From IMG/VR virus record IMGVR_UViG_2778261631_000002: a stretch of 64,000 nucleotides of DNA; one strand, given 5' to 3'. The notes below the pieces were generated by a model. It saw nothing but the letters and a program-made list of their open reading frames with translations. It had not been told where the DNA came from and ran no database searches. Made by a program: the position numbers and the translations under genes. Source of the stretch: a virus (lineage: Duplodnaviria > Heunggongvirae > Uroviricota > Caudoviricetes). This document shows positions 39,915 through 44,426 of the stretch, in pieces (position 1 is the first letter of the stretch; each line of letters starts with the position of its first letter).

Positions 39915-40277
39915 TCAGCTTTCGTTGGCATTTAACTTCGTCTTTGCTTTCTCCACCAGCAACTTCCAGATGCCTATTTCATTAGCAGCCGCCTTGATGG
40001 CGGCATAAAAAGCATCTTGCTGATCGTAACGCTGGATCTGTTTTTTCAGTTTTGCCTCCACCAATTTAATTTCATTACGTGCTTTCTGAAGCCGCATCAC
40101 CGCCCGGTTACATCTGTTCTTGTATAGCGTGTTAATCTCTGACAATTGCTTTAATTTACCAGCCTGACTGCGGATTATCGCCTCCCTGGCTTCTGCCGTG
40201 CGTCTCATCTGATCTCTTAAGAGTTCACCGTTTTCGATAATTCTTTCAAGGTGTTTGATGTGATCTGCAACTCTCAT
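39915..40277 (-). CDS. coiled-coil hypothetical protein (last gene of a 7-gene C1-controlled operon)
   Basis: 120-aa ORF. Confidence 0.55.
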   Translation of the reverse strand: MRVADHIKHLERIIENGELLRDQMRRTAEAREAIIRSQAGKLKQLSEINTLYKNRCNRAVMRLQKARNEIKLVEAKLKKQIQRYDQQDAFYAAIKAAANEIGIWKLLVEKAKTKLNANES

Positions 40278-41572
40278 ACTTCACCCTCGCTTGTATCACC
40301 AGCGTCCACCAACGACAATAAAGCCCTGGCCATCTTATGAACCAACAGTGCATCAATAATGCCAAGCGTATGCCCCGGCTTAATGTTTAATGCTGCCTCA
40401 AGATGACACCTTTCCAGACCGCTTTTCTCGGCTTGTTTATGATGATATGGCGTAATAACGTCGCCCAAAACACGGCTAATTCTTTCTCGTAATTGCTGGG
40501 TGCCAGCACACTTGATCGCTGTATCGTGGAGACGGTTAACCAGTTCGCGATAAACATGCGGCTTAATGCGGATACGTTCACCGGTGACGCCCTTTCCTGG
40601 CGCTGGCACCGAACTATCCGGAATATCCGGATAGTTGCCAGCCTCGTAAGCTACCCGCAGCCAGTGCATGAATGTTTCAGTGGACACACAACCACAGTCC
40701 ACATCGATTTTCCCGCGTTGCTGTTCCAGCCATTGCCCAAAATCCAACCTGTAAGTCTTACTTTGGCTTACAGGTTGGCTACCCTGAAGCATGGCAGCGT
40801 GGCAGGCATACTCAACGCCCTTAACTGCATCTGCGCAGTAGTTATAGCGATTGCATTCCACTAATTTCCGTTTGAGTTTTTCAATTGCCTGCGCGACATC
40901 AGCCTGTATTACAGGAACTGGCGGAACGGCTGTTTGCTCTCGAACGTCATTAGTCGCTATCGGTTCTGCTGCCAACTGACTGGCATATTTGTTAATGGTA
41001 ACGATAAGCTCTTGCTCAGCCTCATCCAGACAATCACCGATACCTCGCCTGTCACCGTCAAAATCATCGAAATCGGCACGAATCTTGGCAACCTTCAGGA
41101 TTGCGGACAACACCTCACTAGGAATTACCGGATAGTTGGTTGACGTTTCCGCGATTTCCCGAAAATTATTGGTTGACGAATTCTTGTTTTCCCGAAAGTT
41201 TCCGGACTGAAGCATGGCGGCGCGGCAGGCGTTCCAGCCATCTGCGTAACAATCTCTGTGTGTCTTGAAATATGTCACCGCCCTTGGTACATCGTTTACG
41301 TCTATTTCATCCGGCACAACCGGCGCAGGTGAGTCAGCATAAACAGGAATAACGTCCGGTTGCTCTTTATTGCTTTCATCCGTTAAAGCCCAGAATAATT
41401 TCCCGGCCGGATGTTTGAAAATATAAGCAACTGGTTCTGCTTCCAGCGATGCCAGAGCAATTCGTGCCAGTTCTTCCGCTTCTTCTGCTGGCAGTACAAC
41501 GTTGCTACCAGGTCCGTATGTTTCGCGCCACTGCTTGATTGTCAGTAGTCGCTCTTTGGTAATAGTGATCAT
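40274..41572 (-). CDS. hypothetical protein
   Basis: 432-aa ORF, overlapping start/stop with neighbours. Confidence 0.6.
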   Translation of the reverse strand: MITITKERLLTIKQWRETYGPGSNVVLPAEEAEELARIALASLEAEPVAYIFKHPAGKLFWALTDESNKEQPDVIPVYADSPAPVVPDEIDVNDVPRAVTYFKTHRDCYADGWNACRAAMLQSGNFRENKNSSTNNFREIAETSTNYPVIPSEVLSAILKVAKIRADFDDFDGDRRGIGDCLDEAEQELIVTINKYASQLAAEPIATNDVREQTAVPPVPVIQADVAQAIEKLKRKLVECNRYNYCADAVKGVEYACHAAMLQGSQPVSQSKTYRLDFGQWLEQQRGKIDVDCGCVSTETFMHWLRVAYEAGNYPDIPDSSVPAPGKGVTGERIRIKPHVYRELVNRLHDTAIKCAGTQQLRERISRVLGDVITPYHHKQAEKSGLERCHLEAALNIKPGHTLGIIDALLVHKMARALLSLVDAGDTSEGEV

Positions 41573-42084
41573 GCCGCGTTTCCTTCTTTCTTATTAACAA
41601 TTACACCGTCATATATTTCATTAAGGTGCCCTCTCAACTCCATGCGCCTTAATGCAGATAACATGTAATCGCATTCAACCTGCTTATTTCCAGTAAATGG
41701 CTTATCGTCAGGATTACCCCAACAGCAATTACCCTTGGGCCACCCATGTACTTTCCGTACTCTTCCGTTAACAACGTGAAGTAATCCCCAGCCAGGTGGT
41801 AAATCCTCAATTGAAATAATTCCCGGCTCACTAATAAAGAATCGCCAGTCGCCCATTCCAAGAGACGGATTTTTACGAAAACGCTTTTTTCTATCTGCCA
41901 ACAAGTCAGCACGAGAACACTTCGCCTCTATCAGGCATGATGCTGAATTTCTGAATCCCATAGCATCTGGCTGTTCTCCGGTACTGGTTACAGCTATAAA
42001 GCGGTCATGAAAACAAACCTTGAACCCGTTGCGCTTAAGGAACTTGTACGCAATCTGACAGAGTTCGCGGTGTGTTAACGCCAT
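41569..42084 (-). CDS. putative PD-(D/E)xK-family nuclease
   Basis: 171-aa protein with GEQPDAMGF … CLIEAKCS (PD … ExK spacing typical of the fold). Confidence 0.5.
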   Translation of the reverse strand: MALTHRELCQIAYKFLKRNGFKVCFHDRFIAVTSTGEQPDAMGFRNSASCLIEAKCSRADLLADRKKRFRKNPSLGMGDWRFFISEPGIISIEDLPPGWGLLHVVNGRVRKVHGWPKGNCCWGNPDDKPFTGNKQVECDYMLSALRRMELRGHLNEIYDGVIVNKKEGNAA

Positions 42085-42085
42085 A

Positions 42086-42772
42086 TCACTCTCCTTTGAT
42101 GCGAATGCCAGCGGCGCGGATTGCAGCGATGACTTCAGAAACTTTGTATGCCATTACCGTTTGGTAATCATCGTGAAAATCTGTTCGATGAAGCATGCTG
42201 CTACGTTCCGGGAGCGATATTTCCCGAGCATCCAGTTCCTTAACGCGTTCCTCCAGTTCGTAGACCCTGCATTGTTCTCTATCATCAATCAGATATAACC
42301 CAAGACATTCGCTTTCTACCCAACCGCCAAAATCATGATCGTAACGCTCACATGAAAACTCACCGTCACCGTCCTTTGTTGGAATGGTGTAACTATCTAA
42401 TGGGCCACCATATGTCGGCACATTCCCCAATGTTGGATGCTCAATCCACATGAAAAATGCACGTCCGGTTATTGGGCAAATATCTGGCCGCCATTGGTTA
42501 CGAACAGCCTTGGTTTCGGATAATTCTTCAGCGTGTTGTTTTACTTCCTCAAGCTCAACTCTCAGCTTCCCAACCGTAAGAGCAATATCCTCGTTCTCCT
42601 GGTCACGGCGTTTGATGTATTGCTGGTTTCTTTCCCGTTCATCCAGTAGTGCCAGTGCCACCGATGGCGTGAACGCCATACGAAACGCCACAAAATTTTG
42701 ATGCATAGGTTCTGTTTCTACTGCAACTGCCGCATCTCGCAGTGCCTGATAGTCAATTGTCATTCTCGCCAT
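42086..42772 (-). CDS. hypothetical protein
   Basis: 228-aa ORF. Confidence 0.55.
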   Translation of the reverse strand: MARMTIDYQALRDAAVAVETEPMHQNFVAFRMAFTPSVALALLDERERNQQYIKRRDQENEDIALTVGKLRVELEEVKQHAEELSETKAVRNQWRPDICPITGRAFFMWIEHPTLGNVPTYGGPLDSYTIPTKDGDGEFSCERYDHDFGGWVESECLGLYLIDDREQCRVYELEERVKELDAREISLPERSSMLHRTDFHDDYQTVMAYKVSEVIAAIRAAGIRIKGE

Positions 42773-43681: not shown

Positions 43682-44231
43682 ACTCTATTACCCACACCCA
43701 AGGATTAGCGTTCCAACTATCTTCGCCATAAATTGATTTCCATAGGCTACGGAAACCTGGGTAATGCTTATCGCCAATGAGGGTCGATTCTGTTGGTGCG
43801 CCCTCAGCCCTTGCATCGCATTCGCTGATATCGTTCAACCGCTCAACGCGCACGTTGGTAATTTCCAGAAGAATGCGCGATGCCCAGCGCGGCATGTGAA
43901 TTGATGGCGTCCACTTTTCTGATACTGGTTTATTACAAACCTCGACCGGAACCCGGTGCGTTTGTTCTGTCCAGGAGTTACGCACGCTTGCGCGATAAAC
44001 CAGCGTTGCGACGTCCGTCGCTTTGCCATGTACCCGGTAGGTTTCGCGAACCCAAATACGATCGCCCGGTTGACCATATGGACAATGCTTGGCAAGCAAC
44101 TCTGCGGCCACTGCCCGTCCATAGAATTTTTCTTCAACAATCCTGCGAGTCTGTGTTTTATTCCCGCCAAGAATTGCCCGGACCATCTCATCGTTAAAAA
44201 TCATGCCGCGCTCTTTCACTTCGCCTTTCAT
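43650..44231 (-). CDS. hypothetical protein (first large gene of the operon)
   Basis: 193-aa ORF downstream of a C1 operator. Confidence 0.55.
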   Translation of the reverse strand: MKGEVKERGMIFNDEMVRAILGGNKTQTRRIVEEKFYGRAVAAELLAKHCPYGQPGDRIWVRETYRVHGKATDVATLVYRASVRNSWTEQTHRVPVEVCNKPVSEKWTPSIHMPRWASRILLEITNVRVERLNDISECDARAEGAPTESTLIGDKHYPGFRSLWKSIYGEDSWNANPWVWVIEFERIQGATSE

Positions 44232-44240
44232 GCATCCCCC

Positions 44241-44327
44241 TTACCCATGTGCGACGATGCCGCCAAAAGTGATAGAGAACAGCCAGAAATAGATCGCGGC
44301 CATAATGATTTTGAATGCCGTGTTCAT
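44241..44327 (-). CDS. 28-aa hydrophobic peptide ORF in the operon leader
   Basis: MNTAFKIIMAAIYFWLFSITFGGIVAHG with SD AGGAG; not in the 60-aa ORF track. Confidence 0.3.
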   Translation of the reverse strand: MNTAFKIIMAAIYFWLFSITFGGIVAHG

Positions 44328-44409
44328 ATTTTCAGCTCCTGTGATTGATTGGATACATGCCGCGCCTTGCGGCATGTTTTTATTTTCACTTTCTCTGTTT
44401 TAAAAATCA

Positions 44410-44426
44410 ATATTTATTAGAGCAAT
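44410..44426. promoter_or_regulatory. C1 operator-like site (1 mismatch)
   Basis: ATATTTATTAGAGCAAT. Confidence 0.65.

Follow-up and report, generated by a model that had tools for sequence, protein, structure and literature searches.

Seven overlapping open reading frames (ORFs) on the minus strand, packed behind an operator for the C1 repressor, raise the question of what an operon of proteins without a nameable function does for its phage. The array spans positions 39,915 to 44,426 of a 64,000-nucleotide (nt) stretch of DNA from a virus of the class Caudoviricetes (IMG/VR record IMGVR_UViG_2778261631_000002), hereafter referred to as the window. We found that the locus is the already annotated hea operon of phage P7, the counterpart of the P1 pmgT operon, a database entry that carries no function. 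The explanation that we favour, with a probability of roughly 0.6, is that of a C1-repressed early transcript with shuffled and mostly independent accessory genes, which would target nucleic acids or the lysis-lysogeny balance and would not be morphogenetic.

Identity and annotation of the locus

The whole region matched phage P7 in megablast with 99.8% identity across 4,701 bp, and the E. coli plasmid CP056895.1 is 100% identical to it. All seven minus-strand ORFs that an earlier note on this DNA had proposed were recovered with the same coordinates and sizes in the ORF list for 39,000–45,500, and they correspond to P7 upf86.8, upf87.4, upf87.6, upf88.3, upf89.0, upf89.5, and upf90.8 (GenBank AF503408 / NC_050152; Table 1). 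The P7 record labels each of them 'unknown protein function' and lists the operator as a protein_bind feature, Op(hea), 'predicted to regulate expression of hea operon'. The distances between consecutive genes are, in gene order, -8, -8, -13, +1, -4, and -4 nt, and the genes are therefore packed for coupled translation; this spacing and the operator support the tightly packed, C1-controlled transcription unit described in the earlier note.

That note had also been unable to name a function for any of the proteins, and this was borne out by the family searches. All seven match only PHROGs of 'unknown function', besides which one weak match to a 'DNA repair protein' family was obtained for the predicted nuclease upf89.0. 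Scans of eight proteins of the locus against Pfam, NCBIfam, and PADLOC returned only Ead_Ea22, and PDB sequence searches with the proteins of 171, 193, 214, 228, and 432 amino acids (aa) gave nothing significant.

Lambdoid origin of the middle genes and variability of the slot

At the DNA level, the middle of the operon shares 94–98% identity with lambdoid phages, Stx-converting ones among them (megablast), and the genes there are common to the early-left exo-xis/ea region of these phages, with 94–100% identity. In the lambdoid Shigella phage Ss-VASD, genes for an Ead/Ea22-like protein, a 185-aa hypothetical protein, and a DUF551-type protein follow one another in the same order as in P7, within the early-left operon between gam-recT-exo-ssb and xis-int. 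The nuclease upf89.0 is 100% identical to its Ss-VASD counterpart and upf88.3 is 76% identical to the Ea22-like protein, while residues 1–221 of upf89.5 are common to the DUF551-type protein, the ends and residues 111–221 being near-identical and residues ~57–110 diverged. The two remaining middle genes likewise have lambdoid copies: upf87.4 is found in lambdoid phages such as Rac-SA53 and mEp460 (83.5% identity), and 95–97% identical copies of upf87.6 occur in other coliphages, adjoining Ea22.

Comparison with the corresponding regions of RCS47, JL22, and SJ46 showed conserved borders around an exchanged interior. All three retain the left end, consisting of pap, the operator, the small ORF, and a ~193-aa gene. 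The middle of the slot holds a methyltransferase gene and the Ea22-like/nuclease/EaA-like trio in JL22, where the Ea22-like, nuclease, EaA/DUF551 order is thus also kept; Ea22-like, DUF551, eaa, and ASCH genes in RCS47; and in SJ46 a gene set that differs from both. The inner block closes with a differently sized gene in each of the three, for which the PmgU domain was confirmed in JL22 by BLAST. A 363-bp pmgV follows the PmgU-ending gene in SJ46 and JL22; RCS47, for which a separate pmgV is not listed, ends at a fusion-type 'putative morphogenetic protein' gene. Only 18 of the 1,233 matching plasmids were at least 80% collinear with P7, and the locus has been described as variable region 8, one of the eight hypervariable regions of P1-like phage-plasmids (PMC9603915). 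Because gene content varies in this way, we regard most of the genes as independent cargo and not as parts of one machine.

A PmgT-like gene was also found in the Serratia chromosome CP109739.1 (locus L008, 6001–6657), in the early-left region of a lambdoid prophage between a cI-like repressor and the integrase. This places the 'anchor' gene of the slot, too, among the typical early accessory genes of lambdoid phages.

Operator, promoters, and leader

The near-perfect C1 operator that had been noticed in front of the genes was confirmed: ATTGCTCTAATAAATAT (44426 to 44410, minus strand) agrees with the consensus at 16 of 17 positions. The window contains 15 operator-like sites with at most three mismatches, compared to 0.37 expected by chance. 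Op(hea) aligns position by position with OpmgT/Op88 of P1, directly after the pap stop codon, and repression by C1 at this site is predicted from the sequence. Two predicted sigma-70 promoters overlapping the operator were placed by alignment to the annotated predicted promoters P2pmgT and P1pmgT of P1.

Operator, hairpin, and small ORF together form a 195-bp leader that is ~99% identical in P1, P7, RCS47, JL22, and SJ46, and the 9-bp GC-rich hairpin, found by RNA folding of the leader at the predicted transcript 5' end, is identical in all five. The 28-aa hydrophobic ORF previously seen in front of the first gene is indeed present and, as a putative ORF, is ~99% conserved in P1, RCS47, JL22, and SJ46; a longer form of 44 aa is listed for SJ46 and JL22, as 'membrane protein' or 'hypothetical'. 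The ORF may be a regulatory leader peptide, for or against which its near-total conservation does not speak. We considered the hairpin as a terminator closing the upstream pap operon and rejected this assignment, as the T-run follows only on the opposite strand and the hairpin scores as a terminator solely on the plus strand, antisense to the operon. It could instead stabilise the mRNA as a 5' stem-loop or stop antisense transcription. An Rfam search over 39.5–45 kb gave nothing credible, its one GcvB match (E 0.28) lying well below threshold.

According to the P1 annotation, the leader made up of the pap end, the operator, and the small ORF has 96–98% identity to sequence immediately following two plasmid-borne type I restriction loci, EcoDXXI and R124/3, and the phd-doc region matches DNA upstream of EcoDXXI hsd. 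The segments concerned lie at 84263–84482 and 87969–88647 of the P1 record (6264–6483 and 9970–10648 of P1 locus L003), the first being equivalent to window positions ~44237–44456. A restriction-modification system seems to occupy the equivalent slot in the EcoDXXI and R124/3 plasmids.

A putative deletion scar in the P1 pmgT operon

In P1, pap is directly followed by OpmgT (formerly Op88), two predicted sigma-70 promoters, and pmgT-pmgU-pmgV. The earlier suggestion that the seven genes may be P1 pmg/upf genes proved right for genes 1 and 7 and for the end of gene 6, whereas genes 2–5 and most of gene 6 are absent from P1. The 193-aa upf86.8 is a short form of PmgT (47% identity over PmgT residues 1–232), the last 111 residues of upf89.5 (322–432) are PmgU (93% identity), and the 120-aa upf90.8 is 96% identical to P1 PmgV.

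BLASTN showed that P1 joins the equivalent of window position 43696 straight to that of 40649, with the junction at ~85182 of the P1 record (7183 of locus L003). The join cuts the PmgT-like gene just before its conserved final beta-strand (between ...NPWV and WVIEF...) and then runs out of frame into the pmgU region. The tail of P1 PmgT matches an alternative-frame ORF that is annotated as upf90.5 in P7 (window 40387–40581), and P1 PmgU comprises only the C-terminal 111 aa of a larger protein. Judged from these alignments, pmgT and pmgU of reference P1 appear to flank a 3,046-bp deletion. Of the two directions, loss in the P1 lineage is the simpler, because the conserved C-terminus is nearly invariant in a very large family and the ~193-aa form is the commoner one; the exact P7 193-aa protein was present on at least 1,000 contigs, compared to 389 for exact P1 PmgT.

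The first gene product has a predicted ASCH fold

The family of upf86.8 comprises 44,418 cluster representatives (50% identity clusters, E <= 0.001). No precomputed Pfam domain is attached to the homologues listed, whose names are 'hypothetical' or 'morphogenetic' (UniRef 'Morphogenetic protein'). An AlphaFold model built from 68 diverse relatives reached a pLDDT (predicted local distance difference test) score of 86 and has the PUA-like beta-barrel of the ASCH fold, and 29 of 54 diverse relatives matched the Pfam family ASCH (PF04266) weakly, with a best E of 2.4e-4. A PDB search with a profile of 54 PmgT-like relatives gave no match.

We compared upf86.8 with the ASCH protein YqfB of E. coli (PF04266), whose catalytic residues are K21, T24, R26, and E74 (PMC9599836). 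Residues K25, T28, and R30 of upf86.8 align with K21, T24, and R26 of YqfB in an hhalign profile alignment, and E143 aligns with E74 in a pairwise alignment, the equivalence being one of sequence alignment and not of position in space; the YqfB sequence was verified against the PDB. All four residues are invariant in the 68 relatives, so that upf86.8, like YqfB, has the complete Lys, Thr, Arg, Glu catalytic set. Based on the model and the alignments, a modified (N-acylated) cytosine nucleoside or nucleic acid is the probable ligand or substrate of upf86.8. The name 'DNA primase', given to this protein in RefSeq NC_050152.1, was rejected, as it conflicts with the predicted fold.

A predicted MmcB-like nuclease

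The PD...EAK nuclease signature claimed for the 171-aa protein upf89.0 was supported by both motif and predicted fold. D40, E53, and K55 are invariant in 30 homologues down to 58% identity, and the structure model (pLDDT 82) has the alpha-beta core of the restriction-endonuclease-like fold. The sequence profile ranks 3dnx first, weakly (E 0.14), on the motif around D40 and E53-x-K55. We take 3dnx to be a member of the MmcB/DUF1052 family, which is indirectly supported by proteins named MmcB-like among the viral structure matches of upf89.0 in BFVD. The Hjc resolvase family was matched weakly by 12 of the 30 relatives, and matches to AHJR-like proteins were also weak. MmcB is a PD-(D/E)xK endonuclease needed for tolerance of mitomycin C and cisplatin and linked to tolerance of DNA cross-links, and upf89.0 probably cuts damaged or branched DNA. 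The RefSeq name 'minor tail protein' for upf89.0 conflicts with the predicted PD-(D/E)xK fold and was rejected.

Ea22-like, cysteine-rich, EaA-like, and PmgV proteins

The protein encoded next to the nuclease, upf88.3, passes the Pfam model Ead_Ea22 (PF13935) at residues 6–87 with 63.4 bits, compared to a cut-off of 27. Its C-terminal domain gave no match to the solved C-terminal domain of lambda Ea22. As Ea22 promotes lysogeny in lambda and Stx phages (PMC7093339), upf88.3 by analogy probably tilts the lysis-lysogeny balance. Some upf89.0 homologues are fused to an N-terminal Ead/Ea22 module (P0091, P0093, and P0104; Salmonella), which shows, at the level of sequence, that the N-terminal coiled-coil part of Ea22 is a portable module able to carry a nuclease of this type.

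The upf88.3 protein ends in ...RIKGE, and a K/R-G-E tripeptide terminates all Ea22 proteins described, with a significance reported there as unknown (PMC7093339). In P7, the KGE tail is encoded by AAAGGAGAG (window 42086–42100), which forms the Shine-Dalgarno sequence 7 nt before the upf89.0 ATG. The K/R-G-E motif may thus simply be the ribosome-binding site of the downstream cistron.

The two Cys4 ribbon proteins that had been proposed among the seven correspond to upf87.4 and upf87.6, both of which contain conserved cysteine clusters consistent with this assignment. In upf87.4, C6, C16, C69, and C72 are invariant among homologues at 29–41% identity. In upf87.6, which matches phrog_2457, homologues from Vibrio and Pseudomonas phages, at 31–47% identity, all retain C186, C189, and C204; the fourth cysteine, C209, lies beyond the end of one homologue fragment and is not a conserved column. 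A P7 note calls upf87.6 a 'putative tyrosine protein phosphatase'; no support for this was returned by the family searches and the name was rejected.

The large protein upf89.5 is mosaic: its N-terminal part is lambdoid, its middle is unique, and its end is PmgU, and the 'EaA' protein of JL22 has the same two ends with a different middle. For upf90.8/PmgV, searches of Pfam, PHROGs, and NCBIfam gave only weak matches to coiled-coil families and nothing informative.

Feature coordinates and neighbouring features

Table 1. Positions of the features of the hea operon in the window
Feature	Position	Strand	Description
C1 operator Op(hea)	44410..44426	-	One mismatch to the 17-bp asymmetric consensus ATTGCTCTAATAAATTT
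Predicted sigma-70 promoters	44382..44425	-	TTGCTC-17-TAAAAC and TTGATT-17-GAAAAT; overlap the operator
Leader hairpin	44355..44377	-	9 bp, GC-rich; RNA fold of leader, predicted transcript 5' end
Small ORF	44241..44327	-	28 aa, hydrophobic, MNTAFKIIMAAIYFWLFSITFGGIVAHG; ATG, AGGAG 7 nt upstream
upf86.8	43650..44231	-	193 aa; short PmgT homologue, predicted ASCH (PUA-like) fold, YqfB-type catalytic motif
upf87.4	43397..43657	-	86 aa from GTG (94 aa from TTG 43681); small Cys4 protein
upf87.6	42760..43404	-	214 aa; C-terminal zinc-ribbon-like CxxC...CxxxxC
upf88.3	42086..42772	-	228 aa; Ead/Ea22-family protein
upf89.0	41569..42084	-	171 aa; MmcB-like PD-(D/E)xK nuclease (predicted)
upf89.5	40274..41572	-	432 aa; mosaic 'EaA-like' protein
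upf90.8	39915..40277	-	120 aa; PmgV orthologue, probably helical or coiled-coil
Segment absent from reference P1	40650..43695	-	3,046 bp, BLASTN

The second gene had been given as a 94-aa ORF, which exists at 43397–43681. Its start is more likely the GTG at 43657, yielding 86 aa, because both the P7 annotation and the phrog_4030 profile begin there (residue 9 of the 94-aa ORF). The exact 12-mer GGCAACCAGTGA occurs at both borders of this gene on the minus strand (43401–43412 and 43654–43665), and upf86.8 and upf87.4 therefore both end in ...ATSE, with the next gene starting at an embedded GTG. The repeat looks like a module junction and could promote gain or loss of the cassette through recombination.

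Downstream of the operon, a very hydrophobic 45-aa ORF on the plus strand (39702–39839) runs convergently towards the end of pmgV. Annotated for SJ46 and JL22 but not for P7 or P1, it overlaps the upf91.3/upfM start in antisense. A copy of IS903 is located at window 38037–39093 (P7 record 92007–93063), ~0.8 kb downstream of the operon, and separates upf91.x from the remainder of the region in which P1 has hot/lxr/humD.

Weighing the explanations

Under the explanation we favour, C1 bound to Op(hea) would block the overlapping sigma-70 promoters in the prophage state. After infection or induction, we infer that a single early transcript of ~4.5 kb would be made, with a stable hairpin at its start and eight close-packed, translationally coupled cistrons. 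The operon would serve as a slot for shuffled accessory genes, the equivalent of the exo-xis/ea part of the lambdoid early-left operon. Its conserved left side would comprise the operator, the small ORF, and the ASCH-fold PmgT-like protein, and its conserved right side the PmgU domain and PmgV; between them would lie cassettes traded with lambdoid phages (Cys4, zinc-ribbon, Ea22-family, MmcB-like nuclease, and EaA-like), whose individual activities we infer from predicted folds and conserved motifs.

Several points weigh against this picture. The promoters were transferred as predictions from P1 and fall below threshold in a consensus scan, and read-through from the upstream sht/pap operon may occur. 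The fold assignments rest on AlphaFold models: upf86.8 itself has no PF04266 match at E <= 0.1 and does not reach the Pfam threshold, and upf89.0 has no Pfam hit, with no match to MmcB (DUF1052) in any of its 30 relatives. Because the curated MmcB/DUF1052 model was unmatched, upf89.0 is filed here as related to MmcB and not as a member. Finally, the order of the Ea22-like/nuclease/EaA-like trio is kept in three unrelated backbones and natural fusions occur, and for this reason the trio, as part of the array, may be one functional unit.

The names of the P1 homologues suggest a virion morphogenesis operon. PmgT, PmgU, and PmgV are described in P1 as of 'putative morphogenetic function', UniRef uses 'Morphogenetic protein', RefSeq calls upf89.0 a 'minor tail protein', and the genes adjoin the sht/pmgR-pmgS operon. 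The earlier note would have been overturned if all seven were morphogenesis genes with known structural roles in P1; we found that PmgT, PmgU, and PmgV are annotated as 'putative morphogenetic' and nothing firmer. Moreover, P1 pmgT/U/V are listed as non-essential both by CRISPR interference and by deletion (PMC10695390), and a deletion study found neither a plaquing defect nor a change in anti-restriction in 24 non-essential P1 knockouts (PMC9024508). The three genes are not named in the main text of that paper on the P1 virion proteome and knockouts (PMC9024508). These data come from P1, with its truncated pmgT and pmgU, and are not informative on P7 genes 2–6, which limits the support that they lend to our explanation. 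In the P7 locus itself, the predicted ASCH and PD-(D/E)xK folds are enzymatic, the middle genes derive from a lambdoid early region and not from a structural region, and no late-promoter -22 box was found in 39.9–44.5 kb with a crude pattern built from three annotated P1 late (Lpa-dependent) promoters, which matched six sites elsewhere in the window. The 'putative morphogenetic' label is thus not supported for P1 PmgT/U/V, a gene set dispensable for plaque formation; the morphogenesis explanation is already contradicted for the P1 homologues, and we consider it scarcely credible for the operon.

The early proteins might instead jointly neutralise host immunity as a counter-defence island: base modifications might, for instance, be removed or recognised by the ASCH enzyme, defence effectors inhibited by the zinc proteins, and a signal or a host nucleic acid degraded by the nuclease. 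Genes that are early, repressor-controlled, non-essential, and hypervariable are typical of anti-defence loci, DNA methyltransferase and PAPS-reductase-family genes occur in related versions of the slot, and the leader also adjoins the plasmid restriction-modification loci mentioned above. However, none of the components was matched to a known anti-defence protein (no dedicated library of these was searched), and the PADLOC scan, whose models cover defence and not counter-defence proteins, gave no match at E <= 0.1. In addition, the study that produced the P1 pmgT/U/V knockouts reported anti-restriction as unchanged in its non-essential set, and the documented phenotype of the Ea22 homologues is lysogeny and not defence. 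On balance, a joint counter-defence function appears unlikely. A narrower version, to which we give somewhat less credence, holds that the PmgT-like family are phage early ASCH enzymes that would remove an N-acyl or similar cytosine mark from host or phage RNA or DNA, anchoring a C1-controlled slot whose cargo, including the trio, would serve counter-defence or host takeover.

More doubtful again is a coherent DNA repair or recombination module, in which an Ea22-like tetramer, the MmcB-like nuclease, and the EaA-like protein would form one complex acting on damaged or branched DNA during early replication. That P7, JL22, and Ss-VASD share the trio order, with gam, recT, exo, and ssb preceding it in Ss-VASD, is consistent with such a complex, as are the naturally occurring proteins in which the nuclease is fused to an Ead/Ea22 N-terminal module (P0091, P0104), the cross-link tolerance role of MmcB, and the weak Hjc matches among the nuclease relatives. 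In contrast, the Ea22-like genes of RCS47 and SJ46 are followed by other partners, and Ea22 N-terminal modules carry many unrelated C-terminal domains, because of which the fusions may reflect a generic oligomerisation module. The variable partners argue for a slot of shuffled, mostly independent early genes, which remains our preferred explanation.

Relevance and comparison with known systems

The main value of these results lies in cleaning up the annotation of a classic phage family. They also show P1-family plasmid prophages and lambdoid phages trading early accessory genes at this slot, with up to 100% protein identity, and provide two testable leads, a protein of predicted ASCH fold with a complete YqfB-like active site and an MmcB-like nuclease. 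A role of either protein in counter-defence or in the lysis-lysogeny decision would be relevant to Stx phages and to resistance-carrying P1-like plasmids. The P7 annotation of the locus, its published variability, and the existence of repressor-controlled early accessory regions in lambdoid phages were already known. Added here are the two fold-level assignments, the interpretation of P1 pmgT/pmgU as a deletion scar, and the presence of lambdoid exo-xis cargo under C1 control. Nothing suggests a new kind of system.

Compared with the P7 records AF503408 / NC_050152, the window has the same ORFs and operator, with no structural differences. The P1 OpmgT(Op88)-pmgTUV operon shares with P7 the position after pap, the operator and leader, PmgV, the PmgU domain, and the N-terminal part of PmgT; in contrast to P7, P1 lacks the 3,046 bp, its PmgT is without the last beta-strand, and its PmgU is only a remnant. 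Unlike MmcB, which is SOS-regulated and chromosomal, upf89.0 is phage-borne and, as predicted, early, and it has an extra C-terminal helical region. The closest parallel to the array as a whole is the exo-xis/ea part of the PL operon in lambda and Stx phages. Both are mosaic and, as predicted for P7, repressor-controlled, early, and non-essential, and they have in common the Ea22-like, 171-aa nuclease, EaA/DUF551-type, upf87.4, and upf87.6 families. In contrast to exo-xis/ea, the P7 array belongs to a plasmid prophage of the P1 family, is placed under an unrelated repressor, C1, and does not lie between exo and xis, and its EaA-like protein ends in PmgU, whereas the lambdoid counterpart ends in DUF551.

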